64,000 nucleotides of DNA from Bacteroidota bacterium (GTDB taxonomy: Bacteria; Bacteroidota; Bacteroidia; Cytophagales; UBA9547), in assembly GCA_041191405.1 (NCBI GenBank), contig JBEEOW010000007.1:33484-97483 (forward strand). The letters are read 5' to 3'. Under the pieces are notes generated by a model. That model searched no databases and was not told where the DNA came from. It worked only from the letters and a program-made list of their open reading frames with translations. The position numbers and the translations under genes were made by a program. Numbering within the stretch: position 1 is the stretch's first letter; each line of letters begins with the position of its first letter. Of the stretch, positions 1,535 to 50,480 are shown piece after piece.

Positions 1535-1590
1535 AATCTTAAATCTTAAATCTTAAATCTTAAGTCTAAAATCTTCTATCTTAATCTATC
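1535..1590. repeat. 7-bp tandem repeat (aaatctt)x4 plus degenerate units containing atcttaagtctaa
   Basis: The periodicity is visible directly in the sequence. The same module recurs at 50447-50480. Confidence 0.7.
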
Positions 1591-2040
1591 AGCAGCATTT
1601 ACTAATTTTTCATCACGTCTAATAAAACGACTAGCTAATGTATTTAAAACCATTGCCCCTACTGGCAACATAAATCCTGCACCAAATTTAGGCGCACCTT
1701 CAACAATAGAGCCACTTGTATAACCTTGGTATGCAACACAAACAAACAATGCCATGATTAAAAAGCTGTTCGCCAAACCAAGTAATAGTTGTAACGGACG
1801 TTTTTTGTATTGTAAAATAATATAAACAGATAAACCAATGATAATCAATGCTAATGCTTGAATATACCAAAGATTAGTATTTTCAACTGAACCTGCTTTA
1901 GTAACTGTTTTATAAGCAGTTGTAACAATTACTGAATCGCCTGTTTTTTCATTATTTACAGTTGCAACAGTTGCTCTTAAGAAAAAGCCTAAAACGCCAA
2001 CTACTGCAATTAAACATAAAGTTTGTATTCTCTGAATCAT
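1576..2040 (-). CDS. small integral membrane protein (4 predicted TM segments)
   Basis: Hydrophobic segments are present and the position is operon-like, directly downstream of the LMW-PTP gene. Confidence 0.5.
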   Translation of the reverse strand: MIQRIQTLCLIAVVGVLGFFLRATVATVNNEKTGDSVIVTTAYKTVTKAGSVENTNLWYIQALALIIIGLSVYIILQYKKRPLQLLLGLANSFLIMALFVCVAYQGYTSGSIVEGAPKFGAGFMLPVGAMVLNTLASRFIRRDEKLVNAADRLR

Positions 2041-2045
2041 TGTAA

Positions 2046-2528
2046 TTACTTTTTGATATTAAAATTTTTGTAAATATAATCAATTAGTGCAATTCCACCA
2101 CGATTTGTAATTTCATAAACTTCATTAAATCCCTCCATATTTCCATAATATGGGTCAGGTACATCTTTACCTTCAAAACCTTTGTCAAAATCTCTAAACA
2201 AGAAAACCTTTTTACTTGATTCATTATCAGGAGATACGGCTAAAATATCTTGAAAATTTGAATTGTCCATTGCCAAAATAATATCAAAATCTTGAAAATC
2301 TTTTTTTGATATTTGTCGGCCAAGATGCGATAATTTTATTCCATTATTTGCTAAAACTCTTAAAGTTCTTGGGTCGGCCAATTCACCAATATGATAAGCA
2401 GCAGTTCCTGCAGAATCACACTGAATTTTACTTGATAAACCCTCTTTTTCAACTAGATGCCTGAAAACGCCTTCTGCCATTGTAGATCTACAAATGTTAC
2501 CAAGGCACACAAATAATACTTTAACCAT
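2046..2528 (-). CDS. low-molecular-weight protein-tyrosine phosphatase
   Basis: The N-terminus VLFVCLGNICRSTMAEG carries the CX5R P-loop, and the protein has the C-terminal DP motif. It is 160 aa. Confidence 0.85.
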   Translation of the reverse strand: MVKVLFVCLGNICRSTMAEGVFRHLVEKEGLSSKIQCDSAGTAAYHIGELADPRTLRVLANNGIKLSHLGRQISKKDFQDFDIILAMDNSNFQDILAVSPDNESSKKVFLFRDFDKGFEGKDVPDPYYGNMEGFNEVYEITNRGGIALIDYIYKNFNIKK

Positions 2529-2532
2529 GTTA

Positions 2533-3759: not shown

Positions 3760-3826
3760 TTATATATTCCAAAAGTTTAATTGGGAATCTAAATTTAGTA
3801 ATAATTTTGTAAAAACCTTTTCAATT

Positions 3827-5011: not shown

Positions 5012-5022
5012 ATAATAAATAT

Positions 5023-7710: not shown

Positions 7711-8329
7711 ATAAATACTTAGTTTTTTCTACTAAGATGGAATCTGATTTTATTACTTTTTTATCAAACTTTATATTATCAAGATTGTACTTTTCAAAAG
7801 ATTTAGTGTGTAAAAATCTATTTAATGAAACAGTATTTTGTTGATTAAAAGTATAAATATTTTCTTCGGCTTTATATATGGTATTTTTATTTTCTGTTCC
7901 AAAATCTAAGATATCTAAATTCTCTTTTCTGTAATAAATTAACTTACTGTTTTTTAGAACAAATTGATCATTACTATATCCATAATCTCCACAATCATGT
8001 AAAAATATATATAATTCTACCATTTCTTGTTCATTAAAAAGTTTAATCATTGAAAAACAACAATCTCCGCCACAAATATCAAACAGATAACTTTTTTGTG
8101 TTGATGATTTAGATTCTAATTCGCTTCTTAAGCTATCTATATAACTATTAAAATTGACATTAAAATACGAACTATCAGAACTTGAAAACTCATAATCATT
8201 TTCATTATTTATATTATCGGTTTTGATTGAATCATTATTTTGATTGCTATTCTTAACATCTTTATTTTTTTCATTACAACTTGAAAGTAAGAACAGAAAA
8301 ATTATAACCAACTTAATTTTTTTATTCAT
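7679..8329 (-). CDS. hypothetical lipoprotein
   Basis: The sequence MNKKIKLVIIFLFLLSSC has a lipobox LSSC after the internal ATG at 8329. Confidence 0.45.
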   Translation of the reverse strand: MNKKIKLVIIFLFLLSSCNEKNKDVKNSNQNNDSIKTDNINNENDYEFSSSDSSYFNVNFNSYIDSLRSELESKSSTQKSYLFDICGGDCCFSMIKLFNEQEMVELYIFLHDCGDYGYSNDQFVLKNSKLIYYRKENLDILDFGTENKNTIYKAEENIYTFNQQNTVSLNRFLHTKSFEKYNLDNIKFDKKVIKSDSILVEKTKYLYEKISRTSDE

Positions 8330-8461
8330 TATATTTTTTTGCCAAATTATAAAAATATTATTCAATTAACACCAAAAACTCGCAAATTCCCCACTTTCAT
8401 ATTAGTTTTATTTAACAAAAAACATTTTCTTTGTTTATACTTGTAATATAGTTTTTAATCA

Positions 8462-9457
8462 TTGATTCGCATGGCAATTTCGGCAGAAGAGCAAACTCGT
8501 ATTTATCTCGAAAAAATTCAAAATATACAGAATGAACTTTCAAAAGTAGTTGTTGGTCAGCAATATATGGTTAACAGGTTGTTAATTGGCTTGTTTACTA
8601 ACGGACATATTTTGCTTGAAGGTGTTCCGGGTTTGGCTAAAACGCTTACTGTAAATACCTTAGCAAAAGTACTTGCTTTGAAGTTTAACAGAATTCAGTT
8701 TACTCCCGATTTGTTACCTTCTGATTTGGTTGGAACAATGATTTACAATCAAAAAGAAGGCATTTTTGAAGTTAAAAAAGGTCCAATTTTCGCCAATATT
8801 ATACTTGCCGATGAGGTAAACCGTTCGCCAGCAAAAGTACAATCTGCCCTACTTGAATGTATGCAAGAAAAGCAAGTTACACTTGGCGAAACTACCTATA
8901 TGCTTGAGCAACCTTTCTTGGTTTTGGCTACTCAAAATCCTGTAGATCAGGAAGGTACATATCCCCTACCTGAAGCTCAAATGGATAGGTTTATGATGAA
9001 AGTGTATGTAGATTACCTAAGCAAAGAAGATGAATTGGAGGTAATGCGTAGAATGGCAAACATGAGCTATGCACCAACAATTAACGCTTGGGTTACAAGA
9101 GAAGATATTCAAGGAATTAGAAAAGAAATAAATCAAGTAAATATTTCAGAACAGCTTGAAAAATACATTATTGAGTTGATTTTTGCTACTCGTCGCCCAC
9201 AAGAATATGGCTTAAAAGACGAGGCAAATTATATTCAATTTGGTGCATCGCCTCGTGCAAGTATCAGTATGAATTTAGCTGCAAAAGCTATTGCATACTT
9301 CGGTGGACGAGATTATGTATTACCCGAAGATATTAAAGATGTGGCAATGGATGTACTGAATCACAGGGTTTTACTGAATTACGAAGCCGAAGCTGATGGA
9401 GTAACTAGTCGCCAAATTATAGATAGTATTTTGAAAAAAGTAGCAATTAATAAGTAA
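8462..9457 (+). CDS. MoxR-family AAA+ ATPase
   Basis: It has the Walker A motif GVPGLAKT, and the length and conserved C-terminal region are typical of MoxR/RavA ATPases. Confidence 0.85.
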   Translation: MIRMAISAEEQTRIYLEKIQNIQNELSKVVVGQQYMVNRLLIGLFTNGHILLEGVPGLAKTLTVNTLAKVLALKFNRIQFTPDLLPSDLVGTMIYNQKEGIFEVKKGPIFANIILADEVNRSPAKVQSALLECMQEKQVTLGETTYMLEQPFLVLATQNPVDQEGTYPLPEAQMDRFMMKVYVDYLSKEDELEVMRRMANMSYAPTINAWVTREDIQGIRKEINQVNISEQLEKYIIELIFATRRPQEYGLKDEANYIQFGASPRASISMNLAAKAIAYFGGRDYVLPEDIKDVAMDVLNHRVLLNYEAEADGVTSRQIIDSILKKVAINK

Positions 9458-12554: not shown

Positions 12555-12595
12555 AAAAATACCTAACAGGTTTTAAAAACCTGTCAGGTATTTGT
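12553..12595. terminator. bidirectional terminator hairpin (copy 1 of a duplicated element)
   Basis: The sequence aaaaaaa-tacctaacagg-ttttaaaaa-cctgtcaggta-tttg forms an 11-bp stem with one mismatch, flanked by A-runs and T-runs. Confidence 0.6.
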
Positions 12596-12599: not shown

Positions 12600-15386
12600 T
12601 TACTCTTCAGTTACTACCATTTTTAAGCGGTGAATTTTTTCACTTATTACTTCAACAGTGTACACTCCTGGTGGCAAACTATGATTAATCATTACTGAAG
12701 TTTCAGTGCTTGTTTTTTCTTTAGCAAAAATCAAATTTCCACTAAAGTCATAAATATTAATTTTATCAATTGGATATTTACTTTGAGCAATTGAAACCTT
12801 ACCATCATTTGATGGATTTGGATACAATTTAATTAAATCAGGATTTTCAATTAAATCATTATCCAAATTTGTAAGAATTGATTTAATTTTAAAATATACT
12901 CTGTTTGAAATTTCGTTGTAGGAGTCATTTGTAAAAAACACTACAAAATATTCACCATCTAATTTGGGTACATTATCAGCTTGGAATGTAGCTGTGCCTT
13001 TTGGTAATCCACCTACATAAGCATAATTGATTAAAGGATCAATGTTCGGGTTTGCGTTTTTATTGAAAATCCCAAGCCAGTCTTTTGCTACACCTGGTCC
13101 ATCTTGAAAATCTACAGATATTAAATCTCCTAGATTGTATTCAATTTTATCAGTTTTAATTGTAGCAATTGTATCTCCATAGGAGAAATATAATTTATTA
13201 CCAACACCAGTGTAACCATCTGTTAATAAGTATTGTGCGTAATAATACCCTTTTGTTAATCCTGTAAATTTAAGAGTTCCATTCGTTCCTGTTGTGTAGC
13301 TCCATTTATCAGCAGGCGAACTTGCACCTGGGGTTTTTCCTACTCTATAAATACCTATCCAATCTTTTGCATTTGCGGGTGCATTCGAATAATTTATTTG
13401 TACTGTATCTTTGTTTTTGTAGGTGTTTTTATTTGATGTTAAAACTGGTATTGAACCAACATAAATATTTATTCTTGTTGCTAATTCAGTATAACCATCA
13501 TTTGAAAAATAAGCTATGTAATACTCTCCAGCAGTTGAAACAGTAAAATTAAGTACTCCACTAGCCCCTGTTACATACTTCCAAGTTGTTGAAGTAGTAC
13601 CTGAACCTGGAGTTTGTCCTTTTTTATAAATACCAATCCAATCTTTTAAGTTACCCGAACCATTGGTATAAGTTACTTGAATAGATTCACTGTTAATATA
13701 CTCAATTTTATCTGTAACTATTTTTGGGGTCGAAACTGTACTACCAGTAATAACCAAGGTTTGTACAGTTGACCAAGCCGACCAATTCATGTTTCTATCT
13801 CTATGTCTAACTCTTACATAATGAGTACCATTAGGTATTTCGCCTGAGTTTATTGTGTATTTAAAAATATCAACACCAGCACCAATATCTTTGGTTTTAT
13901 AAACTACCCCATCTTTACCAAATAAATTTTCATAATCTCTTAAAATATCCTTTTCTAAAGTTGAAAATGAATTTGTTTGTGAAATTTGGAATTGAGTAGA
14001 ATTGTAAGGCTCTGATGTTGTAGTGCTATATGTCGAACTTACCAAGGTAAACGGTAATGTGGTACTACTAGGAAATGTGTTTGTAAATGAAGGTGTTGCT
14101 GGAGATGCTTGTCCCGTTTTACGATAAAATTGATCAATTAACCTACTTTCTTCCCAAACAAATTTTGTGGTTGTATTTGTCCAATCATTAATTGAAGTAG
14201 TGTAACCAATTGAATATGATTCTATATTTACAGCATTCGTAACTAAATCAACTTCCATAATTTGGTAATTCCAATTACAAATAGTTTTCTGACAATCATC
14301 GTAATCAGCCTCTGTTGACATACCCCAATATTGGTCCCAAGCCGAACCACCAGAAATGATATTATAAACTGGTTTGTTTTTATCTTGTCCACGAGCATAT
14401 AGATGGTGATGAGCACCAACATTCATCAAATATTTCGATGAAGTAATCAATTTTGGATACATTGTATTTCTGATCCAAGTTGAAACGTCTCCAATATATT
14501 GTTCAGCTTGGTATGGTCTGTGCGCTAAAGAAACAATCCATTTTACATTAGGGTCAACATTGGCAGAATCTAAAACTTTTGCACCCCAAGTATATTGAGC
14601 TGCATTTAAAGTTGAACTTCCTTCTGTTGTGAAATTCATAAATAACACATTTCCAGCTAAAAAAGCATAATATTCTTCTGTACCCGAATTTATACCTTTA
14701 TAATTTATTCCATCATAATGAAAATGATTTTTGTATGCGGTTAAATTTAAAGAGCCATACGTTTCATGATTTCCAACTATTGTTGATATACCAATATATG
14801 GTGAAATTGCTTTTATCTTATTAAAATGTACATTTTCATAATGGTCTAGTGTTCCAACATCTACTTGGTCACCAACCATTACAACCATATCCACTGCCTC
14901 ATTTAACGGAACACCATATTTAGCTTCAACTTTGCGTTTAGCTCTGATTACCAATGAATCATAACGAGGTTCGTTTTTTAATTGGTTATCGCCCATAATT
15001 AAAAAACGCATTTTTTTATTACTTACCTCTGCCCCACCTGGCGAAGGCATGGTTCTAAATGAATAAACTGGAGAAACATACGCTCCAGTTTGTACTTTGT
15101 AATAATACTTGGTATAAGGCTGTAAACCAGTTAAATGTACAGAGTGATAGTAGTAATTGTTACTATAGCCAGCATCTGTCCAGATATTATTTGTACCTGT
15201 GGTTGTTAAATTCAGGTTTGATGAACTTTTACCATAAAGTACTTTACTTTCGGTACCTGATGAAGTTTTCCAGTTTATAAAAACCGAATTTGGTGTCATT
15301 ACCTCGAGGTAAGGCACAGTAGTTTGAGCTTTAAGGCTTGTTAATACTACAAAAAATAGCATTAAACTTAGTAATTTTGCTTTCAT
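12600..15386 (-). CDS. secreted calcineurin-like metallophosphoesterase with repeated beta-sandwich domains and a T9SS C-terminal sorting domain
   Basis: It has a signal peptide and the metallophosphoesterase motifs GDNQ, GDQVD and GNHE. Three ~90-aa repeats contain KDWIGIY. The C-terminus KLYPNPSNDGKVSI...YDFSGNLIF...GVYTVEV matches the Por/T9SS CTD. Confidence 0.75.
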   Translation of the reverse strand: MKAKLLSLMLFFVVLTSLKAQTTVPYLEVMTPNSVFINWKTSSGTESKVLYGKSSSNLNLTTTGTNNIWTDAGYSNNYYYHSVHLTGLQPYTKYYYKVQTGAYVSPVYSFRTMPSPGGAEVSNKKMRFLIMGDNQLKNEPRYDSLVIRAKRKVEAKYGVPLNEAVDMVVMVGDQVDVGTLDHYENVHFNKIKAISPYIGISTIVGNHETYGSLNLTAYKNHFHYDGINYKGINSGTEEYYAFLAGNVLFMNFTTEGSSTLNAAQYTWGAKVLDSANVDPNVKWIVSLAHRPYQAEQYIGDVSTWIRNTMYPKLITSSKYLMNVGAHHHLYARGQDKNKPVYNIISGGSAWDQYWGMSTEADYDDCQKTICNWNYQIMEVDLVTNAVNIESYSIGYTTSINDWTNTTTKFVWEESRLIDQFYRKTGQASPATPSFTNTFPSSTTLPFTLVSSTYSTTTSEPYNSTQFQISQTNSFSTLEKDILRDYENLFGKDGVVYKTKDIGAGVDIFKYTINSGEIPNGTHYVRVRHRDRNMNWSAWSTVQTLVITGSTVSTPKIVTDKIEYINSESIQVTYTNGSGNLKDWIGIYKKGQTPGSGTTSTTWKYVTGASGVLNFTVSTAGEYYIAYFSNDGYTELATRINIYVGSIPVLTSNKNTYKNKDTVQINYSNAPANAKDWIGIYRVGKTPGASSPADKWSYTTGTNGTLKFTGLTKGYYYAQYLLTDGYTGVGNKLYFSYGDTIATIKTDKIEYNLGDLISVDFQDGPGVAKDWLGIFNKNANPNIDPLINYAYVGGLPKGTATFQADNVPKLDGEYFVVFFTNDSYNEISNRVYFKIKSILTNLDNDLIENPDLIKLYPNPSNDGKVSIAQSKYPIDKINIYDFSGNLIFAKEKTSTETSVMINHSLPPGVYTVEVISEKIHRLKMVVTEE

Positions 15387-15632: not shown

Positions 15633-15672
15633 AAAAAATTACCTAACAGGTTTTTAAAACCTGTCAGGTTTG
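15633..15672. terminator. terminator hairpin (copy 2, near-identical to 12553-12595)
   Basis: The sequence aaaaaaa-ttacctaacagg-tttttaaaa-cctgtcaggtt-tg lies downstream of the minus-strand gene 15683..16738. Confidence 0.6.
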
Positions 15673-19882: not shown

Positions 19883-22156
19883 TTACTTAAACTTATTTTT
19901 CAAGGCTTGTAATTGGTCTTGCAATTGGTTGCCAGATTCTTTTACCGTTTCTTTTTTTGCAGGAATTGGTGTTCTTGCAGTAGTTGATTTGGCAGTTTTT
20001 TCAGTTTTAGTATTACTTGAAGTGAAACCATTCAATCCTTTCATAGTTAAAGATATACGTTTTCGTTGAACATCTACTTCTTGTACTTTTACTTTAACCT
20101 TTTGCTGTACTTTTACAGCTTGGTTTGGGTCTGAAATAAAGGTATCCGATAACTGTGAAATATGAACCAATCCATCTTGATGTACTCCAATATCCACAAA
20201 TGCACCAAAGGCTGTAACGTTGGTTACAACACCGGTTAACTCCATCCCTACTTTTAAATCTGCAATTGAGTTTACACCTTCTGCAAATTGAATTACTTCA
20301 AATCCATCACGAGGGTCACGTCCAGGTTTGGCTAATTCTTGTAAAATATCTGTTAATGTAGGCAAACCAACTTTATCAGTTACGTACTTTTTAAGGTCAA
20401 TTCCTTTTCTAATTTCAGCATTGGCAATTAAATCTTGTACTTTACACCCTAAATCTTTTGCCATTTTTTCAACAATGGCATAACTTTCAGGGTGTACAGC
20501 TGATGAATCTAAAATGTTTTTTGCATTATTTATTCTTAAAAATCCTGCCGCTTGCTCAAACACTTTTTCGCCCAAACGAGGCACTTTTTTTAATTCGGTT
20601 CTTGATTTAAAAGGTCCGTTTGCATTTCTATATTCAACAATATTTTGTGCCAATGCTGGACCTAAACCTGAAACATAGGTAAGTAACTGTTTACTAGCTG
20701 TATTCACTTCAACACCAACAGCATTTACACAACTCATAACCACATCATCAAGCATGTGTTTAAGTTTGTTTTGCTCCACATCGTGTTGATACTGACCCAC
20801 TCCTATTGATTTGGGATCTATTTTTACCAACTCAGCCAATGGATCCATTAATCTTCTTCCAATAGAAACTGAACCTCTCACGGTAATATCTTGGTCAGGG
20901 AATTCTTCTCTAGCAATATCCGATGCCGAATATATTGAAGCTCCACTTTCATTTACCATTACAACTAACACATTTTCAAGCTTTAAACCACGAATAAAAC
21001 TTTCCGTTTCTCGTCCTGCAGTACCGTTTCCAATAGCAATGGCTTCTATTTTGAATTGTATTACCAAGCTTCTTATTTTAGCCTCTGCATCAGCAAGTTT
21101 CGCTTGAGAATCGTGAGGGTAAATAACTTCGTTTACCTCTAATTTACCTTGCTCGTTTAGGCAAACAACTTTACATCCAGTTCTAAATCCCGGGTCAATT
21201 GCCAACACTCTTTTTTGCCCCAAAGGTGCAGCCATCAGCAATGTTTTTACATTGGATGCAAATACCTTGATAGCTTCTTCGTCGGCTTTTGCTTTGGTTA
21301 GTAAACGAACATCAGTTTCAATAGAAGGTTTAATTAATCTCTTGTAACTATCTCCAATTGCAAGTTTTACTTGGTGGGTCGATTCGTAGTGTCCTTTCAA
21401 TACTTGACGTTCAACCAATGCAACTGCATCTTCATCAACAGGCGAAATTTCAAGCATTAAAATCCCTTCTTTTTCGGCTCTACGTAATGCCAACAATCTA
21501 TGCGATGGAATATCTTTAATAGATTCGTCCCACTCAAAATAGTCTTTGTATTTTTCGCCAACATCCTCTTTTCCAGCGATAACTTTTGATTTTACAATAG
21601 CTGTTTTAACAAATAATTCACGTACAGAAGCACGAACTTCTTGTTGCTCACTCACCCATTCTGAAATTATATCTCTAGCACCTTGTAATGCTTGATGAAT
21701 ATCTTCTACGCCTTTTTCAGCAGAAATATATTTTTCAGCTTCAGCAAAAACATCTAATTTTTCTTGTGCAAAAAGTAGGTTTGCCAAAGGTTCTAAGCCT
21801 TTTTCTTTGGCTTGTGTAGCACGAGTTCGGCGTTTTGGTTTGTATGGCAAGTAAATATCCTCAAGTTCGGCCATTGTTTGTGCTGCACGAACTTTTTTCT
21901 CTAAATCCGGAGTTAAAAACTTGTTTTCGGTAAGTGATTTAATTACAGCTTCTTTGCGTTTTTCAAGCTCACGTAATTGCAATGCACGGTCTCTGATTGC
22001 TGCAACTTCTACCTCGTCTAAACTGCCTGTAACCTCTTTTCTATACCTCGAAATAAATGGAACAGTTGCTCCTTCGTCTAAAAGAGCTAATGTAGCTTCA
22101 ACTTGTTTTTTACTGATTGATAGCTCTTTAGCTACAATTTCATTGATGTCAAACAT
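19883..22156 (-). CDS. tex: Tex-like transcription accessory protein (YqgF/RuvC-like, HhH and C-terminal S1 domains)
   Basis: It is 757 aa and matches the conserved Tex N-terminus and the C-terminal S1 domain (GMELTGVVTNVTAFGAFVDIGVHQDGLVHIS). Confidence 0.9.
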   Translation of the reverse strand: MFDINEIVAKELSISKKQVEATLALLDEGATVPFISRYRKEVTGSLDEVEVAAIRDRALQLRELEKRKEAVIKSLTENKFLTPDLEKKVRAAQTMAELEDIYLPYKPKRRTRATQAKEKGLEPLANLLFAQEKLDVFAEAEKYISAEKGVEDIHQALQGARDIISEWVSEQQEVRASVRELFVKTAIVKSKVIAGKEDVGEKYKDYFEWDESIKDIPSHRLLALRRAEKEGILMLEISPVDEDAVALVERQVLKGHYESTHQVKLAIGDSYKRLIKPSIETDVRLLTKAKADEEAIKVFASNVKTLLMAAPLGQKRVLAIDPGFRTGCKVVCLNEQGKLEVNEVIYPHDSQAKLADAEAKIRSLVIQFKIEAIAIGNGTAGRETESFIRGLKLENVLVVMVNESGASIYSASDIAREEFPDQDITVRGSVSIGRRLMDPLAELVKIDPKSIGVGQYQHDVEQNKLKHMLDDVVMSCVNAVGVEVNTASKQLLTYVSGLGPALAQNIVEYRNANGPFKSRTELKKVPRLGEKVFEQAAGFLRINNAKNILDSSAVHPESYAIVEKMAKDLGCKVQDLIANAEIRKGIDLKKYVTDKVGLPTLTDILQELAKPGRDPRDGFEVIQFAEGVNSIADLKVGMELTGVVTNVTAFGAFVDIGVHQDGLVHISQLSDTFISDPNQAVKVQQKVKVKVQEVDVQRKRISLTMKGLNGFTSSNTKTEKTAKSTTARTPIPAKKETVKESGNQLQDQLQALKNKFK

Positions 22157-22262
22157 ATTTTTAGTTAAGAGTTTAGTGTTCAGAAGTTAAGAGTTTTCGA
22201 GTTAAGATTTTAAAATTTTTGTAAACTATAAACCCTAAACTCTATACTCTTAACTCTAAACT
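22157..22262. repeat. inverted array of gttaaga(g)tt-type heptamer repeats forming a long imperfect hairpin
   Basis: The left arm reads gttaagagtttag...gttaagagttttcgagttaagatttt and the right arm reads aaccctaaactctatactcttaactctaaact. It sits between the chorismate-enzyme stop and the tex start. Confidence 0.6.
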
Positions 22263-28980: not shown

Positions 28981-30291
28981 ATGGCTTTATTATTTACTTC
29001 AGAATCAGTGTCGGAAGGACACCCAGATAAAGTAGCCGATCAAATTTCGGATGCACTATTAGATGCACATTTAGCACAAGATCCACAATCTCGTTTTGCT
29101 TGTGAAACATTGGTAACTACAGGTTTAGTTGTGGTTGCTGGTGAAATCACTACTAAAGCAAATGTTGATGTACAAGCAGTTGTACGTGCAACAATCAACA
29201 AAATTGGTTATACCAAAGCTGAATATATGTTTGAAGCTGAGTCATGTGGTATCATGAATGCACTTCATGCACAATCACCTGATATTGCACAAGGTGTAAA
29301 CGAAGGCGAAGGTTTGGATAAAGAGCAAGGTGCTGGTGACCAAGGTATGATGTTTGGTTATGCATCAACTGAAACTCCTGAGTATATGCCAATGGCTTTA
29401 GCGTTTTCTCACAGATTAGTGAAAAAAATGTCTGAAATCAGAAAAGAAGGTAAAATAATGACATACCTTCGTCCAGATACAAAATCACAAGTTACAATAG
29501 AGTACGACGAAGCTGGTAAAGCAAAAAGAGTTGATACTATTGTAATTTCTACACAACATGATGATTTTGTAAAACCAACTAACAATAGCAAAGAAGCTAA
29601 ATTAGTAGCCGACAATGCAATGTTAGATGTTATCAAAGCTGATATTTTAGCAAATGTAATTCCTGCAGTAATCCCAGCTGAGTTATTAGATGCTAACACA
29701 AAATATTTTATTAACCCAACAGGCGTATTCGTAATTGGTGGTCCACATGGTGATTCTGGCTTAACAGGTAGAAAAATTATTGTTGATACTTACGGTGGAA
29801 AAGGTGCTCACGGTGGTGGTGCATTCTCTGGTAAAGACCCATCAAAAGTGGACCGTTCGGCAGCTTATGCAGCACGTCACGTAGCTAAAAACTTAGTTGC
29901 AGCGGGTGTTTGTACCGAAGCTTTAGTACAAGTTGCTTATGCAATTGGTATTGCTAAACCAGTTTCTATCAATGTAAATACTTATGGTACAGCAGTAAAT
30001 GGCTTATCTGATGCTAAAATTGCTGATGCTGTAAATAAAGTATTTGATATGAGACCAAAAGCTATTGTTGAAAGATTTGGATTAAAAAATCCAATTTATT
30101 CAGAAACAGCAGCTTACGGACACATGGGTAGAGAAAGCTACGAAAAAGAAATTGATGTAAACTATGTTACTGTTTCTGAAAACAATGGCGTAGTTACTGA
30201 AACTCGTACAGCATCTAAGAAAAAAGTAACTTTCTTCGGATGGGAGAAACTTGATTATGTTGATGCAATTAAGAAAGAATTAGGTATTTAG
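28981..30291 (+). CDS. metK: S-adenosylmethionine synthetase
   Basis: Motifs [33 protein letters not shown] and [16 protein letters not shown] are present. Confidence 0.95.
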
Positions 30292-30340
30292 TATTTAGTA
30301 TTTAGTATTTAGTACAAAGTATTAAGTATTAAGAAAAGAG
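30285..30340. repeat. 7-bp tandem repeat (tatttag)x5 - tacaaag - (tattaag)x2
   Basis: Seen directly in the sequence. It starts in the last codons of metK. A nearly identical module lies at 50401-50437. Confidence 0.7.
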
Positions 30341-30369
30341 GAATCGAGAAATCGGTTTCTCTTTTTTTG
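30337..30369 (+). terminator. metK intrinsic terminator
   Basis: The hairpin gagaaa-tcgg-tttctc is followed by ttttttt. Confidence 0.5.
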
Positions 30370-30392: not shown

Positions 30393-30977
30393 TTGTATTA
30401 CTTAAATAATAAATACTTTATGAGAGCTACTGCCTTTTTTAAAAATAAATTATTCTATATCGTTCTATTTCTTTTTTCTCTTACCCAAAGTTATAGTCAA
30501 TGTAGTTTTGAGTATAATGATTCATTTAAGAAAAGAAAAGTTTTAGAACAGAATTGGAATAATATAAAATTTGAATTTATTCCTGAAGACCTTAAAAAAT
30601 TCCCATTAATATTTCAACGATTTAGTGACGAAAATTATGAAAATAAAATAAACGTCCAAAAAGAAAAACTTTTAAGAAAAGACACTACTTGTAGTTGTTT
30701 AGAAGGTAATTATAGTACAATGTGGTATAATGAGGACTGGATTGAAAAATACTATAAAGGTGAATATACTTTTAAAAATATCGATTCTATTCAAGATTTT
30801 AATCCTGAAAAATTTCCTTATGTGATGATGTGTTATAATACTTTAGACTATTTTTCGAATGGTTACGGAAGCGGAAGAGTAGGTGTATATATTTGGGATA
30901 GAAGAACTGATAAAAAGTACAAAGTCATTAGTGTATGTGGTAAAAGTGAAATGGTTTGGTTTTTGAAAAATATATAA
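30393..30977 (+). CDS. secreted hypothetical protein
   Basis: It has a signal peptide ending SYSQ. Confidence 0.4.
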   Translation: MYYLNNKYFMRATAFFKNKLFYIVLFLFSLTQSYSQCSFEYNDSFKKRKVLEQNWNNIKFEFIPEDLKKFPLIFQRFSDENYENKINVQKEKLLRKDTTCSCLEGNYSTMWYNEDWIEKYYKGEYTFKNIDSIQDFNPEKFPYVMMCYNTLDYFSNGYGSGRVGVYIWDRRTDKKYKVISVCGKSEMVWFLKNI

Positions 30978-31043: not shown

Positions 31044-32957
31044 CTATTCTTCTAATTTTTCATTTTTCTTTGGGTCCATCATTTCCATTAATTTTAAACC
31101 TAATAATCCGTCCATTGCTGAGCCGTTGCCGCCTCCATTTGCACCACCAATTAATATATCAGGTATTAATTTGATGTGTCCTTTAGCAAGCTCTTCAGTG
31201 ATTTTGTAACGTGTAAAGTTATCGCCTCCCATGGCTTTTACAGCTAACTCGTAAGCTTCGGCTGTTGACTGACCTATCGCTAAGATTTTACCTGCTTCCG
31301 CACTACCTGTTAATCTAATTTGCTCAGATTCAGCTTCTGCACGTAATTTGGTTGCTTCTGCTTCGGCTTTTGCTCTGGCTTTGGTTGCTTCTGCTTCGGC
31401 AAATGCTCTTAATTTTGTAGCTTCTGCCTCTGCTCCTACTGCAAGTTTTACACCAGCGGCATCTCCTTCTGATTTTTTCACTGTAGCACTTGCGGTACGT
31501 TCTGCAATTTCAACCGATTGTTGTGCTTTTACAATGTCCTTTTGCATATCTGCAATGGCAGTTTCTTTCTCCATCCCTTGACGAGTTTCTTGGGCTTGTT
31601 TTTGGGTTTCGTATGTCACTTTTTGCTCCTCAGCTATTTTCCTGTCGGTTAAGGTTTTCATTAATGATTCAGGAGGAACAATATCTCCAATTAAGGTATC
31701 AACTGCATTAACGTTGTATTCGTCAAGCACTTTTTTGATATGTTCTTTGGCCGATTCTTGACGTTCTTTACGAGTAGTTAAGAAAGCAATTACATCACTA
31801 TCTTGTGCCGAGTTACGGAAGTAGTTACCAATAGTTGGCTCAAGTACCTGAGAAACAAGGTTTGTCATGTTCCCAAATCGAGCAATTACTTTTGGCGCTT
31901 CGGTTGTTGGTACATGAATAATTTGCGAAACATCCAATTGGAAAGGGAAACCATCTTTTGAACGAACTGTAATTGTAGATAAGTTTTTATCCAGATTATG
32001 TGATTCTGTTCTTGCAGATGCCCAGTTTAACACAAGGTTTGTGGTTGGTACTTGCTCCACTTTCATTGTGTATTTGTTAATCGGGTATTTACCAGGACCA
32101 AGTGGTTGAATCCAAACACCTTTGTTTCCTTTTTCAACAATGTTACCATGTTTAAAGTCAACACCTGTTAAATCGTGTCCTTCCTGACCGATATATGAAA
32201 TCACAACTCCCACATAACCAATAGGAATTTCAGTCATCATAATTTCCTCTAACTGAATAGCCCAAGGGTTTAAGTTATACGAACCTGCTAAAATAACCTG
32301 TGGTTGTAAACCTCTATTTCCCCCTGCTTTTATAAATTTATCAAAATCTTGAAAGTTATTATGACCTTCAATTAATTTACCAGCAATTTGTCCAGCTTCA
32401 ATTGGCAAACCATCTAAAGTAGTAACAATACCTACCCTACTCTCTTGAATACGAACCATATCCGTTACCGAGATATGAAACAACATAGTGTTTATACGAT
32501 AAGTACCTGCGGTGATATATGAAGCTTGTCGACCTTTTTGCCCACCATCAAGTAAGAATTTAGCTGCATCTTGAAAGTTATCACATTCAACAAATTGACC
32601 TAAAATATTACCTGTTGGAATTTCGGCACCGTCATTAGCGAGTACCAAACCAATTTTACCCTCAGGAATGATTGTAAAATTTTCCATGATAACATCGTAC
32701 TGCCAAACCCATTTCCAGAAATACAAACCTGGAGCAAGTGGCTTAGCTTGGTAACCTGCTTCACCTTTAAGTGCAATAATTCTACCATCGGGTAACTCTT
32801 TGTCTTCACCAAAAAGAACAAACTTCTTTGTTACCAATCCAATTTTATCTTCGGGTACTATTACCATCCCGAATAAAAATCTAAGAATAAACCTGTGCCC
32901 AATAATACAAAAAACTATGAGCATAATCCACCACGCATTTGAGATAAAGTTCCCCAT
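31044..32957 (-). CDS. flotillin-like SPFH/band-7 protein
   Basis: It has an N-terminal TM segment, an SPFH core, and a long coiled coil with AEAEATK(L/A)RA tandem repeats, which is typical of bacterial flotillins. Confidence 0.8.
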   Translation of the reverse strand: MGNFISNAWWIMLIVFCIIGHRFILRFLFGMVIVPEDKIGLVTKKFVLFGEDKELPDGRIIALKGEAGYQAKPLAPGLYFWKWVWQYDVIMENFTIIPEGKIGLVLANDGAEIPTGNILGQFVECDNFQDAAKFLLDGGQKGRQASYITAGTYRINTMLFHISVTDMVRIQESRVGIVTTLDGLPIEAGQIAGKLIEGHNNFQDFDKFIKAGGNRGLQPQVILAGSYNLNPWAIQLEEIMMTEIPIGYVGVVISYIGQEGHDLTGVDFKHGNIVEKGNKGVWIQPLGPGKYPINKYTMKVEQVPTTNLVLNWASARTESHNLDKNLSTITVRSKDGFPFQLDVSQIIHVPTTEAPKVIARFGNMTNLVSQVLEPTIGNYFRNSAQDSDVIAFLTTRKERQESAKEHIKKVLDEYNVNAVDTLIGDIVPPESLMKTLTDRKIAEEQKVTYETQKQAQETRQGMEKETAIADMQKDIVKAQQSVEIAERTASATVKKSEGDAAGVKLAVGAEAEATKLRAFAEAEATKARAKAEAEATKLRAEAESEQIRLTGSAEAGKILAIGQSTAEAYELAVKAMGGDNFTRYKITEELAKGHIKLIPDILIGGANGGGNGSAMDGLLGLKLMEMMDPKKNEKLEE

Positions 32958-42188: not shown

Positions 42189-42301
42189 TTGGACAAATAA
42201 ATTATATTAGACAATTCATTAATAAATAAGGAATTACACATAAAAACTATAATCAACATAATAGAAATTCTTACTAGTTATTAACAAAATTTAGTAAAAA
42301 C

Positions 42302-42874
42302 TTATTGATTCAGAATCAATTTTTCTTCTAAAACCTTAGCAAATTTATAGCAAATCAAAGCAAAAAGTACTCCAGTAATACCTCCTGCAAGTACATCAGT
42401 TGTGTAGTGAACTGCTAAATATACTCTACTATAACTAATTAAAGTCGCCCAAAGTAACATTCCTGTTAACCAGTATTTTCGTGGTTTTAACCATAAGCCA
42501 AATATTATTGCAATTGCAAATGAGTTTGCAGCATGTGAGGATATAAAACCATATTGACTACCTGCTTTTTCAGGAACTTGTAATTTTGGCGCTAAATTAA
42601 CATCATAACAAGGTCTGTATCGTTTGAAAAATGGCTTACAAAATCCAGATGAAAATCTATCTGCCATGGCAATTAACAGTACAATTATTAAAACTTTGAT
42701 TCCCACACTTTTTAATGGGTAGCTTTTGTACAAACAAAATAACAAAATTGCATAAAAAATATACCACGTTTGTTTACGTGATACAAATAGCATAAACTTA
42801 TCCCAAAATGGTGTATGTGTATTATTTATTGCAAATAATATAACCTCGTCCCAATGTTGAATAGTTTCTAGCAT
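42302..42874 (-). CDS. PAP2-family phosphatase (membrane)
   Basis: Motifs KRYRPCYD, SSHAANSFA and SRVYLAVHYTTD match the three PAP2 motifs. Confidence 0.75.
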   Translation of the reverse strand: MLETIQHWDEVILFAINNTHTPFWDKFMLFVSRKQTWYIFYAILLFCLYKSYPLKSVGIKVLIIVLLIAMADRFSSGFCKPFFKRYRPCYDVNLAPKLQVPEKAGSQYGFISSHAANSFAIAIIFGLWLKPRKYWLTGMLLWATLISYSRVYLAVHYTTDVLAGGITGVLFALICYKFAKVLEEKLILNQ

Positions 42875-42878
42875 GTTG

Positions 42879-42975
42879 TAGTTGAGAGTTAAGAGTTAAG
42901 AGTTGAGAGTTAAGAGTTGAGAGTTGAGAGTTGAGAGTTTAAACAAAAACTCTTAACCCTCAACTCTTAACCCTC
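42879..42975. repeat. eight tandem gttgaga/gttaaga heptamers followed by inverted complement units (aactcttaaccctc x2)
   Basis: Seen directly in the sequence. It forms a long imperfect hairpin and exactly fills the hisIE-PAP2 intergenic space. Confidence 0.7.
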
Positions 42976-42977
42976 TA

Positions 42978-43583
42978 CTATTTATGTCTTGCTTTTAATA
43001 CTTCTAACACCTCATCAAGCGTGTAATTTTTAGCTTCTAATAAAACCAAGTAATGGAATAACAAATCAGCAGCTTCACCAAGGAATAGCTCTTTGTTGTC
43101 ATCTTTAGCTTCTATTACCAATTCTACGGCTTCCTCTCCTACTTTTTGAGCAACTTTGTTAATTCCTTTGTGAAATAAACTTGAAGTATATGACGATTCT
43201 GGAGAAGCTGCTTTACGTTGTTTAACAACCTCTTTTAATTGATTAATAAACAATGTATTATCAACTTTGTTTGGTTCATTAAAACAAGTATCAGCACCAG
43301 TGTGACATACGGGACCAACTGGTTCAGCTTTAATTAAAACAGTATCTTTGTCGCAGTCAACAATGATATTTTTAACCATCAAAAAATTGTTTGATGTTTC
43401 ACCTTTGGTCCACAAACGATTTTTTGTTCTACTAAAAAATGTAACCTTACCTTCAGCAACAGTTTTTTCTAATGCTACTTTATTCATAAACCCAACCATT
43501 AGCACTTTAGATGTTTGAACATCTTGCACTACTGCTGGGATTAAACCACCTTGTTTTTCGAAATCAATCTCTGCTATATTCAT
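42978..43583 (-). CDS. hisIE: bifunctional phosphoribosyl-AMP cyclohydrolase / phosphoribosyl-ATP pyrophosphatase
   Basis: The HisI part matches GGLIPAVVQDVQTSKVLMVGFMN...CHTG, and the HisE part matches the C-terminus (LFLGEAADLLFHYLVLL). Confidence 0.85.
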   Translation of the reverse strand: MNIAEIDFEKQGGLIPAVVQDVQTSKVLMVGFMNKVALEKTVAEGKVTFFSRTKNRLWTKGETSNNFLMVKNIIVDCDKDTVLIKAEPVGPVCHTGADTCFNEPNKVDNTLFINQLKEVVKQRKAASPESSYTSSLFHKGINKVAQKVGEEAVELVIEAKDDNKELFLGEAADLLFHYLVLLEAKNYTLDEVLEVLKARHK

Positions 43584-46058: not shown

Positions 46059-46065
46059 ATTTTAT

Positions 46066-46169
46066 TAGTTTTTGTTCTTAATTTTTAAGGGAAGGTGTCG
46101 ATGAGCGGTCGTTTATCTAGTTTTTGTTGTTAATTTTTAAGAGAAGATGTGGAAGAGCGGACAATATCT
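46066..46169. repeat. 52-bp tandem duplication (2 units)
   Basis: The units are tagtttttgttcttaatttttaagggaaggtgtcgatgagcggtcg and tagtttttgttgttaatttttaagagaagatgtggaagagcggaca. A related gatgtagatgagcggtgggc sits at 45903. Confidence 0.55.
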
Positions 46170-46594
46170 TAAATTTTAACACCTATAGTAATTAGATGGA
46201 GTATATTATTTAATTTTTTTACATTATTAACTTTTAATATGTGATATTCAGATTGGGTCATTTGCCAACTCTGAATTTTGGAAATTTCTTTAATTAAGAA
46301 ATCTGACCATAAGCTACTTTTTGAAAAATAAAAAAATAACTTTTCAGGTTCATTTAAAATATCATATTCATCTTTAGGGAAAGGTTCTTCCCAATTGTCA
46401 AAATAATCTGGCACATCCCTAATTATTTCAATATAATTTTCAAAAATAGATTTGCTCAAAGTTTTTAATTGCTCGTTATCAATTGATATTATTATCTGAA
46501 TTTTTACCTTAGAATTAACTCTTTCATTGTCTGACCAAGTAAATTCGTCATAACTCAATTTATTAAACCCTAATGATAAATTTTCTATTCTCAT
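46169..46594 (-). CDS. hypothetical small acidic cytoplasmic protein (141 aa)
   Basis: Intact ORF flanked by repeat elements. It has no motif. Confidence 0.4.
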   Translation of the reverse strand: MRIENLSLGFNKLSYDEFTWSDNERVNSKVKIQIIISIDNEQLKTLSKSIFENYIEIIRDVPDYFDNWEEPFPKDEYDILNEPEKLFFYFSKSSLWSDFLIKEISKIQSWQMTQSEYHILKVNNVKKLNNILHLITIGVKI

Positions 46595-47995: not shown

Positions 47996-48679
47996 ATGAA
48001 AAATTTAGTAGTTCTAACAGGTGCAGGTATAAGTGCCGAAAGTGGCATAAAAACTTTTAGAGATTCTGACGGATTATGGGAAGGACACGATGTAATGGAA
48101 GTGGCTACTCCTCAAGGTTTTGCGAAGAACCCTGCGTTGGTTTTAGAGTTTTATAACCAACGTAGAAAACAAGCTCTTGAAGTAAAACCAAATGGTGGTC
48201 ACATAGGTTTGAAAGACTTAGAAAAACATTTTAATGTATCAATCATTACCCAAAATGTAGATTCATTACACGAACATGCAGGTTCAAAAAATGTACTTCA
48301 TTTACATGGAAAATTAGACGAAAGTAGAAGTACTAAAAACCCTGATTTAGTGTATAAATTAAATTCTTGGGAGCTTAACTTAGGAGATAAATGTGAATTA
48401 GGTTCTCAACTTCGCCCAAATATAGTATGGTTTGGTGAGGCGGTTCCAGCCATTGAGGGTGCAATAGAAATTGTAGCCAAAGCTGATATTTTCGTCATAA
48501 TTGGTACATCATTAGTTGTTTACCCAGCCGCAAGTTTGATTGATTATGTTCCTAAAAAAGTGCCAGTTTATGTAATTGACCCAAATAAACCCTCACTTAC
48601 AAATATCAAACACAATATAACTTTTATTGAAGAAATGGCTAGTGTTGGGGTGGAAAAATTAAAGGGTTTGATAATATAA
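47996..48679 (+). CDS. NAD-dependent protein deacylase, Sir2 family (CobB-like)
   Basis: It has the Sir2 motifs GAGISAESGIKTFRD, QNVDSLH and an HG in LHLHGKL. The Zn-ribbon region has only one conserved Cys, which matches the short bacterial CobB forms. It is 227 aa. Confidence 0.85.
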   Translation: MKNLVVLTGAGISAESGIKTFRDSDGLWEGHDVMEVATPQGFAKNPALVLEFYNQRRKQALEVKPNGGHIGLKDLEKHFNVSIITQNVDSLHEHAGSKNVLHLHGKLDESRSTKNPDLVYKLNSWELNLGDKCELGSQLRPNIVWFGEAVPAIEGAIEIVAKADIFVIIGTSLVVYPAASLIDYVPKKVPVYVIDPNKPSLTNIKHNITFIEEMASVGVEKLKGLII

Positions 48680-48714
48680 GGGCGATTGAACTCCCTTATA
48701 TTATCAATTTAATT

Positions 48715-50394
48715 TTAAAAACTCTTCCCAATTTTATATTTTTCCCAAAATGCTGCATTGATCAATTTGTCGGTTTCAATTTCTAAAATAGAAGCTGAAT
48801 CTGATTTTAAAAATGCAGCTATTTGAACATCAAATGATTCATAATCATTTGCAAAATAGTAGTTTAAACCAAAATCACTTGCTGTATTTTTAGCATTTAG
48901 TTTTTGATTGGTTTCAAAATAAGTATCTATTTCAGGCTGAGTACTTGGGCCATCAATTAACCTAAAAATACCTCCAGCATGATTATTTAAAATAATAACT
49001 TTTAAATTACTTGGAATATGATTGTGCCAAAAAGCATTTCTATCATAAAAGAAAGCTAAATCGCCAGTAATCAATACATTAGGTGCATTATTTACAAGTG
49101 CATTTCCTAAAGCTGTACTTGTACTACCATCTATTCCACTTGTACCTCTATTGCAATAAATTGGTATATAATTTTTGATACCAATAATATTCACATACCT
49201 AACAGTCATACTATTAGATAAATGTAAATGACAATTCGTTGGAATTTTAGGCAATATTTTGGCTATTACCGAAAACTCATTAAAACTTGTTTCCTCTTTA
49301 ATTTTTCTATTGATATAATCCTCTGCATCTTCATTGAGTTCTTCCCATTGATTTGCATAATCCATACTAAACGAAATTTTATTGTTCAATATGGCTTGTG
49401 ATATTTGTGTAAAAAATGAATCAGCAGAAACTTGAATATGCTTTGTTAATTGTTGAAACGAATCAGGCGCAACAATTTCCTCAGAAACATGCCATTGTGC
49501 TTTTGCTTTGTATTTTCTTAGGAAATTTTTTAAACCTTTTGACAACACTTGTCCGCCAAATGTAATCAATAAATCTGGTTGTAAATCTTGCAAACTATCC
49601 TCTCCTATTGCATTTATAAAAATGTCATGATGACTAACTACATTTTCTAATGAATGACAATTAGCTATAGAATCTGCAACTAAAACAGCCTGCGAACTTA
49701 AAGTAAACGAAAATAGAGAATCCAACAAATGATTATTTATTGGCGATTGTCCAGCAACAATCAATACTTTTGAATATTGTTTTAACTCAGTTATTAATGA
49801 GTTAATTTCTAAATTTTTACTTGTATCTTGAATTTCAATAACTCTTGGAGCATTATCAAAAACAATTTCATCATTGCTGTATAATGGTTCCCTTAAAGGA
49901 ACATTTACATGAACTGGACCTTTAGGCGATTGATTTGAATGATTAATTGCCTCATTAAGCGTCCTATTAATAAACCATTGAGCATCTGAATTTGAGTAAT
50001 CTTCTGGTAATTGATATGATTGTTTTACGTGTTTTCCAAAAATATTTTGCTGAAAAATAGTTTGTCCATCTTGTTGAGCAATCCATTCTGTTGGTCTATC
50101 AGCAGTTAGTAAAAGTAAAGGAATATTTCTAAAAAATGCTTCGGCAACAGCAGGTGCAAAATTATAAACCGCTGATCCACTTGTACATATTAAAGCAACC
50201 GTATTATTACTCGCTTCAGCCATACCCAAAGCCACAAATGCAGCAGCACGTTCATCAGGGATAACAAAAGTTTCAATTTCAGGATGACGAGCAAAAGCAA
50301 TTGTTAATGGAGCGCATCTTGAACCCGGACACATAACTACTTTATTTACTTTTTTAGCTGCGCAAAGAGATGCGATATTGTAAATTGCTTTCAT
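48715..50394 (-). CDS. menD: 2-succinyl-5-enolpyruvyl-6-hydroxy-3-cyclohexene-1-carboxylate synthase (TPP-dependent)
   Basis: It has the MenD-like N-terminus (VVMCPGSRCAPLTIAF) and the TPP-binding motif GDLAFFYDRNAF...NNHAGGIF. It is 559 aa. Confidence 0.75.
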   Translation of the reverse strand: MKAIYNIASLCAAKKVNKVVMCPGSRCAPLTIAFARHPEIETFVIPDERAAAFVALGMAEASNNTVALICTSGSAVYNFAPAVAEAFFRNIPLLLLTADRPTEWIAQQDGQTIFQQNIFGKHVKQSYQLPEDYSNSDAQWFINRTLNEAINHSNQSPKGPVHVNVPLREPLYSNDEIVFDNAPRVIEIQDTSKNLEINSLITELKQYSKVLIVAGQSPINNHLLDSLFSFTLSSQAVLVADSIANCHSLENVVSHHDIFINAIGEDSLQDLQPDLLITFGGQVLSKGLKNFLRKYKAKAQWHVSEEIVAPDSFQQLTKHIQVSADSFFTQISQAILNNKISFSMDYANQWEELNEDAEDYINRKIKEETSFNEFSVIAKILPKIPTNCHLHLSNSMTVRYVNIIGIKNYIPIYCNRGTSGIDGSTSTALGNALVNNAPNVLITGDLAFFYDRNAFWHNHIPSNLKVIILNNHAGGIFRLIDGPSTQPEIDTYFETNQKLNAKNTASDFGLNYYFANDYESFDVQIAAFLKSDSASILEIETDKLINAAFWEKYKIGKSF

Positions 50395-50400
50395 TTTTTT

Positions 50401-50480
50401 AGTATTAGGTATTAGGTACTAAGTACAAAGTATTTGAAAAATAAAATCTTAAGTCTAATGTCTATAATCTTAAGTCTAAA
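50401..50480. repeat. heptamer repeat module (gtattag x2, gtactaa, gtacaaa, gtatttg) followed by the atcttaagtctaa module x2
   Basis: It shares agtacaaagtatt with the metK locus and atcttaagtctaa with the 1535-1590 locus. Confidence 0.65.

Follow-up and report, generated by a model that had tools for sequence, protein, structure and literature searches.

Why do short tandem repeats with a period of exactly 7 nt sit at the gene boundaries of a Bacteroidota genome, and what keeps them there? The question is raised by a 64,000-nt stretch of contig JBEEOW010000007.1 (positions 33,484–97,483; G+C content 30%), hereafter called the window, in which five intergenic spacers (sites 1 to 5) carry such heptad arrays. 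A sequence-only reading of the window had listed these sites and suggested that the repeats represent a protein-binding array, a phase-variable spacer, or a replication-slippage hotspot. Our analysis shows that the arrays are heptanucleotide simple-sequence repeats (SSRs), an already described class that is enriched between genes in several bacterial phyla. The finding is real, non-random, and correctly located, whereby it adds one more case to a known kind of repeat and does not represent a new kind of element. The arrays change by whole 7-nt units, share modules between loci, and are located in transcribed spacers behind genes, half of them being paired with an inverted partner. We consider it fairly probable that these SSRs, which are strand-polar within post-gene transcribed spacers, act at the RNA level in their paired form.

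The window was scanned by lag autocorrelation for periods 2–15, and Tandem Repeats Finder (TRF) was run alongside. By direct reading of the sequence, the units that had been described were found in place at all five sites. TRF called period-7 arrays at each of them, with 79–100% matches and 0% indels:

Site 1, 1534–1584, 7.3 copies, score 74.
Site 2, 22222–22262, 5.9 copies.
Site 3, 30284–30330, 6.7 copies (6.7–8.4 copies across calls).
Site 4, 42880–42939, 8.6 copies, 92% matches, score 99.
Site 5, 50402–50418, 2.4 copies.

Long self-matching stretches occurred at lag 7 and its multiple 14 alone, and at exactly these five loci, so that the earlier list of sites is complete for the window. Period 7 accounted for four to five arrays, compared to zero to two for any other period. 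The possibility that the heptamers are compositional noise fails on their density, which is 76 per kb within the arrays but falls to 1.8 per kb in coding regions and 3.7 per kb in the remaining intergenic DNA, i.e., roughly 20- to 40-fold higher in the arrays than elsewhere in the window. The heptad periodicity, which had been called strict, does not hold for the left arm of site 2 (22157–22210), which is degenerate and contains 8-nt units. Different loci indeed have modules in common. The 13-mer ATCTTAAGTCTAA is confined to sites 1 and 5 (three matches vs. 0.18 expected), and GAGTTAAGAGTT-like units are nearly confined to sites 2 and 4 (14 matches vs. 0.28 expected). For sites 3 and 5, GTACAAAGTATT matches exactly, but the sharing is not significant if one mismatch is allowed.

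Each of the five sites occupies a spacer between co-directional genes and starts at or on the upstream stop codon. Three arrays overlap the stop codon (at 1576–1578, 22256–22258, and 30289–30291) and two begin 1–2 nt past it (stop codons 42978–42980 and 50481–50483), as had been noted before. Among the window spacers of at least 60 nt, arrays are present in 5 of about 25 co-directional ones and in none of the eight divergent ones. Canonical terminators stand next to the arrays of site 1 (1507–1533) and site 3 (30330–30369). Sites 2, 4, and 5 are without a terminator-like site, which supports the earlier view that terminators alone are not sufficient to explain the repeats. What the sequence-only reading had missed is the hairpin architecture, the strand polarity, and the prior publication of the repeat class. 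Taking the transcribed sense of the flanking genes as the sense strand, we call G-containing arrays G-type and C-containing, G-poor arrays C-type. All five sites obey one rule, namely G-type at the stop codon and C-type at the start codon.

The arrangements differ between the sites, comprising a long hairpin that pairs in multiple registers (sites 2 and 4), two arms around a terminator (site 3), a lone array between stop codon and terminator (site 1), and a pair of unrelated modules (site 5). Sites 2 and 4 are inverted repeats in which the stop codon is followed by a G-containing arm, and the complementary, C-containing arm extends to the next ATG:

22222–22262, minus strand, 5′ arm of site 2, G-type heptads AGTTTAG/AGTTAAG/AGTATAG.
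22157–22210, minus strand, 3′ arm of site 2, degenerate C-type units CTCTTAA and CTTAACT, complementary to the 5′ arm.
42947–42977, minus strand, 5′ arm of site 4, about four G-type units GAGGGTT AAGAGTT GAGGGTT AAGAGTT.
42879–42940, minus strand, 3′ arm of site 4, 8.6 C-type units CTCTCAA/CTCTTAA, the part that varies in copy number.

The 5′ arm of site 2, which has 11 G and no C on the sense strand, overlaps the TAG stop codon (22256–22258) of a chorismate-binding (isochorismate-synthase-like) gene (22256–23443), and the spacer with the 3′ arm reaches the ATG of tex (22154–22156). This start codon is right, since the match to the Tex N-terminal domain begins at residue 3. The 3′ arm was not called by TRF and is recognisable mainly via its complementarity to 22222–22262. 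Both arms are 74–85% complementary in several registers, and the predicted RNA fold has −29.3 kcal/mol (z −4.35). At site 4, the 5′ arm opens one base past the TAG stop codon of hisIE (42978–42980), whereas the 3′ arm stops 4 nt before the ATG (42872–42874) of a PAP2-family gene. The hairpin of site 4 reaches −43 kcal/mol (z −10.2) with 28 contiguous pairs, leaves the start codon unpaired, and can be formed in at least five registers. At both sites, it is because the arms are repeats that they pair in several registers. The intrinsic terminator test found no terminator-like site within 42800–43050, and there is no U-run after either hairpin, the 3′ arms running into AAAAAT-ATG at site 2 and into ACTACAAC-ATG at site 4. 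Rfam yielded no match at the gathering score and nothing meaningful. At E ≤ 0.1 there was one spurious match of the site 4 hairpin (42885–42981) to the plant microRNA precursor MIR1888, with 35.6 bits compared to a gathering threshold of 72 bits, which represents a chance likeness of long hairpins. A tRNA search of the window found none.

The remaining sites consist of the following features:

30279–30333, plus strand, array of site 3, (AGTATTT)x4, AGTACAA, (AGTATTA)x2, called by TRF with period 7.
30330–30369, plus strand, canonical intrinsic terminator of metK directly after the array, 18-pair stem plus T-run, none in shuffled sequences.
30403–30419, plus strand, C-type partner of site 3, TAAATAA TAAATAC TTT, ending at the ATG at 30420 of the next gene.
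1534–1590, minus strand, array of site 1, in the sense direction TAG-AAGATTT-TAGACTT-(AAGATTT)x4, called by TRF with period 7.
1507–1533, minus strand, canonical intrinsic terminator of site 1, 11-bp stem followed by a T-run, immediately 3′ of the array.
50446–50480, minus strand, module A of site 5, in the sense direction TTAGACT TAAGATT ATAGACA TTAGACT TAAGATT, G-type.
50398–50437, minus strand, module B of site 5, in the sense direction AATACTT TGTACTT AGTACCT AATACCT AATACTA, C-type.

The array of site 3 overlaps the stop codon of metK (30289–30291). Past the metK terminator, the complementary block TAAATAATAAATACTTT reaches the ATG of the next gene, and since this short partner ends there, beyond the terminator, the heptad blocks of site 3 bracket the terminator. 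The start of the gene is supported by a JGI gene call at ATG 30420. The partner is complementary to (AGTATTT)n over arms of 15–19 nt (84–93%), and the arrays pair long-range in the fold (z −6.4). At site 1, the array overlaps the last codons and the stop codon (1576–1578) of a DUF4293 gene (1576–2040), and no inverted partner of it was found. A few tens of bases upstream of the open reading frame (ORF) 1033–1389, a G-free leader contains a small (ATAATTA)x2.6 array at 1416–1433, which may be a sixth, minimal heptad block of C-type or AT-only composition. Site 5 holds two modules back to back, as the sequence-only reading had recognised. Module A, which is the same as at site 1, begins 1 nt past the stop codon (50481–50483) of a 112-aa ORF. 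Module B, the module of site 3 in opposite orientation, stops 3 nt short of the menD-like ATG (50392–50394), and the match of the menD-like protein to the N-terminal domain of thiamine pyrophosphate enzymes begins at residue 7. Modules A and B are not complementary to each other, and neither an inverted repeat nor a predicted structure (fold z +0.5) was found at site 5.

Are these arrays a peculiarity of one contig? By their HisIE proteins, the nearest named genomes belong to the Cytophagales/Cyclobacteriaceae with at most 74% identity, and closer relatives were found neither in a scan of genome contigs (maximum 74%) nor in one of metagenome contigs (maximum 73%). The same autocorrelation scan was applied to 80 related loci around hisIE from Cytophagales and Chitinophagales genomes (about 1.3 Mb), whereby two array thresholds were used. 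At the strict threshold, period 7 dominates with 27 arrays compared to at most nine for any other period. At the looser one there are 101 period-7 arrays (81 after merging overlaps) versus at most 16 for the other periods among 5–12. A second, smaller set of metagenome loci agrees with this (18 arrays vs. at most five). At least one array is present in 36 of the 81 sequences that make up the 80 loci and the window. The unit sequences vary by genome (AACTAAC, ATTTACG, GAGATTT, GACCGAA, CAAATAC, and others), and no common core of the units is enriched beyond composition (AG in 33 units vs. 27.6 expected).

Where the arrays lie and how they are oriented is far from random. Although this DNA is 85% coding, 75 of the 81 arrays are mostly intergenic. 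By spacer type, 63 are co-directional, 8 convergent, and 2 divergent, with 45.4, 9.0, and 18.6 expected by length, respectively (p = 2e-5). Of 32 G-type arrays, 22 have a stop codon at a distance of no more than 6 nt (3.5 expected), and of 27 C-type arrays, 15 are that close to a start codon (2.0 expected). Conversely, 22 of the 25 stop-proximal arrays have more G than C, and 16 of the 20 start-proximal ones have more C than G (p = 5e-7). The polarity is also seen in arrays without a partner, where the ratio of G-type to C-type is 11:0 near stop codons and 2:9 near start codons (p = 2e-4). It is therefore tied to the transcribed strand and is not a mere consequence of palindrome symmetry. Leaders without any array are likewise G-poor (G 12.5% vs. 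C 18.6% at positions −30 to −1), so that the orientation on the start side conforms to what is general in these genomes. Of the 81 arrays, 39 have an inverted partner at a distance of up to 200 nt, compared to 2 of 81 in a composition-matched control, and direct arrays standing alone and paired arrays are equally common. In several relatives the arms bracket canonical terminators.

In the his operons of Algoriphagus (L044, L057, L064, L079, L081), the intercistronic spacers are unusually long (100–250 nt), and the arms bracket a centre of about 70 nt. Several Algoriphagus species share (ATTTACG)n...(CGTAAAT)n arms, e.g., in L081 at 7970–8125 and 8860–9010, without an obvious terminator in the centre, and L070 contains AAATACG/CGTATTT as a variant of this unit. 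Judged by their unit sequences, these loci suggest that unit families are genome-specific. The longest array of the survey, with about 13 near-perfect copies of CAAATAC, is located at 8385–8484 of L058, a metagenome-assembled genome (MAG) of Roseivirga. It is almost free of G and stops 2 nt before the predicted start codon.

Strain-level alleles were obtained solely through exact-protein look-ups, and the window matched JGI, ENA, NCBI, and Logan contigs of uncultured freshwater “Bacteroidota bacterium.” The proposal of a slippage hotspot is borne out by these alleles. Next to an identical DUF4293 protein, site 1 has six units (in the window and two other contigs), five, or at least eight, and contig L088 carries (TTAAGAC)x2 plus (TAATTAA/TAATTAG)x4 in their place, again beside the identical protein and before the same terminator, which is thus kept despite the different modules. 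The 3′ arm of site 4 has five, six, or eight units among strains with 97–100% identical HisIE, while the 5′ arm stays at about four units with point changes in all alleles seen. In strain L179 (HisIE 97% identical), the whole hairpin of site 4 is swapped for one of a CAGTTTT/AAAACTG family within the same boundaries. The replacement still folds (−36.6 kcal/mol, z −5.4), and it has NNACTGA units in forward orientation directly before the start codon. Furthermore, L179 carries a (TCAGTAA)n...(AAACTGA)n heptad hairpin at 1575–1680, in the spacer behind PAP2 and before a different, convergent gene, so that the same ACTGA-type family is present on both sides of the PAP2 gene. In the window, unlike in L179, the spacer after PAP2 (42189–42301) contains no array. 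Hence, both arrays and gene order differ at the strain level. For sites 2, 3, and 5 no variation was seen in the few other contigs available. The copy numbers come from short-read assemblies, and some of them need confirmation by long reads, as the Logan contigs L003–L005, L176, L178, and L184 stop inside the site 4 array, from both sides. Because the arrays fragment short-read assemblies in this way, they are probably under-represented in MAGs.

What could the arrays do? We infer that slipped-strand mispairing creates and resizes them, and selection on the mRNA would shape where they persist and in which orientation. The polarity on the start side would reflect that translation start regions in Shine-Dalgarno-poor bacteria avoid G. 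Such G-poor start regions are typical of Shine-Dalgarno-poor Bacteroidota, which is consistent with the leader composition measured here. Paired arrays would probably constitute a stem-loop in the 3′ untranslated region or in intercistronic RNA that protects or delimits the upstream message. They would also hide or expose the leader of the downstream gene, and unit gain or loss in one arm would tune downstream expression. What keeps the arms complementary may be selection, or else one arm of the quasi-palindrome may be copied from the other. In the stem, the 5′ arm has the stop codon at its base and the 3′ arm is closely followed by the start codon, a geometry that would fit a ribosome-dependent unmasking of the downstream leader. 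A more far-reaching version, which we regard as doubtful, is that paired arrays present a self-renewing RNA device that occurs across phyla, i.e., a slip-register hairpin that couples or insulates translation and whose heptad number in one arm would serve as a heritable rheostat on the downstream gene. In such a device, the stem would be opened at its base by a ribosome that terminates on the upstream gene, whereby the G-poor leader of the following gene becomes accessible. Only the complementarity of the arms would have to be maintained, and their sequence could otherwise change freely, as it did in the complete unit replacement of the hisIE–PAP2 spacer.

Several observations weigh against a function at the RNA level. 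The flanking genes are functionally unrelated, and operon coupling is thus not obvious. Sites 1 and 5 lack any hairpin. A sense-strand signature was missing in the arms, where mismatches that are G-U-compatible and A-C mismatches are about equally frequent (18 vs. 20), and the folding energies of sense and antisense strands do not differ significantly (33 vs. 18 spacers, Wilcoxon p = 0.4). Background composition does not account for the G enrichment of lone arrays near stop codons, as the DNA after stop codons is not G-rich. Arrays are gained and lost between 97%-identical strains, as would be the case for near-neutral DNA. In addition, gene boundaries in the related loci were taken from crude ORF calls (first ATG), on which the distances to start codons rest.

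The leading alternative is that the arrays are near-neutral by-products of a heptamer-biased replication slippage, and that location and polarity merely show where such DNA is tolerated, namely not in coding regions, not in promoters, and not in G-rich form before starts. This would account for the hypervariable copy numbers and modules behind identical proteins, for the strain-level presence and absence, for the lack of a conserved motif and of a sense-strand bias in the arm mismatches, and for the G-poor leaders as a general constraint, and published work has likewise found no function. It does not readily account for the arrays abutting stop codons beyond random placement in the same spacers (22 of 32 vs. 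3.5 expected), nor for the 11:0 excess of G-type among lone stop-proximal arrays despite post-stop DNA that is not G-enriched. Half of the arrays have complementary partners, the hairpin architecture at site 4 outlived a complete replacement of its units, and in several species of Algoriphagus one unit family occupies the orthologous spacers of the his operon. If one arm of a quasi-palindrome is copied from the other, complementarity could be kept without selection, which would also explain the association with terminators, and the near-neutral account is for this reason a serious competitor, even if we hold it to be clearly the less likely one. A different role for copy number would be that of contingency loci, in which unit gain or loss upstream of a start codon switches or grades the downstream gene via promoter or leader spacing. 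In line with this, it is the arm adjoining the PAP2 start codon that varies at site 4, and in Nostoc the output of reporters was changed by heptamers upstream of recF and recO. However, the arrays start at the stop codons of DUF4293, isochorismate-synthase-like, metK, and hisIE genes and lie before tex, PAP2, and menD-like genes, i.e., they follow and precede housekeeping genes and do not occupy promoter spacers of surface or virulence genes. Sites 1 and 3 are followed by terminators and not by genes, divergent promoter spacers are avoided, and changes in unit number leave the reading frames unaltered. A contingency role is thus unlikely, and the same holds for the classical phase-variable promoter spacer of the sequence-only reading.

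The exact stretches of 13–15 nt, including variant units, that distant loci have in common, as well as the cassette swap within fixed boundaries at site 4 and the ACTGA-type family flanking PAP2 on both sides in L179, would also be expected from a small mobile or copy-and-paste palindromic element that inserts after genes and has heptads as its internal structure. Such an element would resemble repetitive extragenic palindromes (REP), bacterial interspersed mosaic elements (BIME), or miniature inverted-repeat transposable elements, and both the post-gene location and the absence from divergent spacers are reminiscent of REP elements. But neither a conserved core nor a terminal inverted repeat or target-site duplication is common to the copies, and their lengths differ by whole units. 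Instead of a single conserved palindrome there are three unrelated modules among the five sites, two of which are without a palindrome, and lone arrays are as frequent as paired ones. No transposase was found linked to the arrays, whereby no systematic search was made. Overall, we consider a mobile palindrome improbable. The least probable of the alternatives is that the arrays are sites for a protein that binds DNA or RNA sequence-specifically, with each subunit recognising one heptad, like the omega repressor of pSM19035, HutP, or cold-shock proteins. The 7-nt period does match the footprint of some proteins of the omega repressor, HutP, or cold-shock type, the unit families are genome-specific, and the polarity would fit an RNA-binding protein; the binding of heptamers by CspB is cited in a passage of PMC4679880. 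Against this stand the lack of a shared core across the modules within one genome, which a heptad operator array of the omega repressor type would show, and the outright replacement of units at a single site between strains, as in L179. Arrays are depleted in divergent, promoter-only spacers and oriented to the transcribed strand even if unpaired, and the protein-binding DNA array that had been proposed is not supported; a weakly specific single-strand binder is conceivable.

Further candidates were tried and dropped. A conserved NAG core every 7 nt, as in HutP-like RNA sites, was suggested by eye, where most units read AG(T/A)NNNN, but was weak in a within-unit shuffle (33 vs. 27.6). Stop pads in three frames do not explain the G-type orientation, as all frames are closed by 45% of arrays in G orientation and by 38% in C orientation. 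Integron attC-like sites came to mind as GTTAAGA resembles the GTTRRRY core, but were ruled out by reasoning, given the housekeeping flanks and the unrelated units elsewhere. Ladders of target-site duplications from repeated transposon insertion and excision found no support, and no element was found.

The window also contains repeats that are not heptads. Two near-identical palindromic, terminator-like hairpins (ACCTGACAGGTTTT...AAAACCTGTTAGGT) at 12557–12593 and 15641–15669 flank a gene for a 928-aa protein (12600–15386). Their 14-mer has seven matches with at most two mismatches versus 0.44 expected, and they may form a second dispersed palindrome family. The highest TRF score of the window (156) belongs to a 52-nt unit with 1.9 copies and 87% matches at 46061–46160, located in the 434-nt spacer upstream of the ORF 46169–46594. 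At 31345–31427, a 33-nt repeat with 2.5 copies lies in frame (11 codons) inside a 637-aa Band_7-family ORF (31044–32957).

How do the heptad arrays compare with known systems? The REP and BIME of enterobacteria, which are imperfect palindromes, occupy the transcribed spacers that follow genes, seldom lie between divergently oriented genes, and can serve to stabilise mRNA 3′ ends or as attenuators, whereby REP elements have one conserved unit of about 35 nt per genome and are linked to a dedicated transposase. Compared by description, the arrays differ from them, as their arms consist of tandem heptads that differ between loci and change by unit slippage. Like the long SSRs with units of 5–11 nt, the arrays are 7-nt head-to-tail repeats with 2.4–8.6 copies and a predominant period of 7, are excluded from coding regions, and, in the short-read assemblies, show a whole-unit length polymorphism between strains. 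According to a passage of PMC4679880 that summarises Mrazek 2007, heptanucleotides are the commonest long simple repeats in most of the genomes surveyed, and polymerase slippage is suggested as their origin. In Beggiatoaceae, Cyanobacteria, and five Bacteroidetes, TAACTGA arrays have been described just upstream of start codons (MacGregor 2015; PMC4679880), with other heptamers mixed into the Bacteroidetes spacers and contigs that break at the arrays. The window contains no tandem TAACTGA, and NNACTGA units resembling these repeats occur in L179, where they precede a start codon, and in L027. Hairpin pairing and strand polarity in Bacteroidetes, which are found here, were not described in that work. 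Short tandemly repeated repetitive (STRR) sequences of cyanobacteria are 7-bp tandem spacer repeats able to form hairpins, e.g., between hupS and hupL, for which roles in transcript stability, translational coupling, or transcription termination have been proposed (PMC2670836). The arrays described here are alike in being hairpin-forming 7-bp spacer repeats, but differ in unit sequence and phylum.

The closest match is given by the G-rich heptamers GGGAATC/GGGGAYT of Xanthomonas and Nostoc (Rehm 2015; PMC4692102). On the coding strand, these are found no more than 50 bp downstream of a stop codon, which some of them overlap, and on the non-coding strand they precede start codons. Few of them separate divergent genes, inverted pairs are formed in some cases, and close relatives differ in both the length and the sequence of arrays whose positions are conserved; no function was found for them. 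The same positional and strand rule applies to the arrays of the window and of the related loci, which are likewise intergenic, few between divergent genes, present as inverted pairs, and variable at conserved positions. The differences concern the phylum, the much more frequent inverted pairing, and the units, which here are AT-rich with scattered G at most. GGG runs occur twice in the window arrays, both in the 5′ arm of site 4, whereas a G-quadruplex takes at least four. Heptamer repeats have thus been known since the STRR work and the 2007 survey, without an accepted function. To this, the present arrays add a natural allelic series in the hisIE–PAP2 spacer (five, six, and eight units and a replaced hairpin), which can be cloned directly for expression tests, and a polarity of unpaired arrays that ties the rule to the transcribed strand. 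Since AT-rich heptads that are incapable of forming a G-quadruplex obey the same stop- and start-side strand rule as the G-rich heptamers of Xanthomonas and Nostoc, the rule is independent of G-quadruplex formation.

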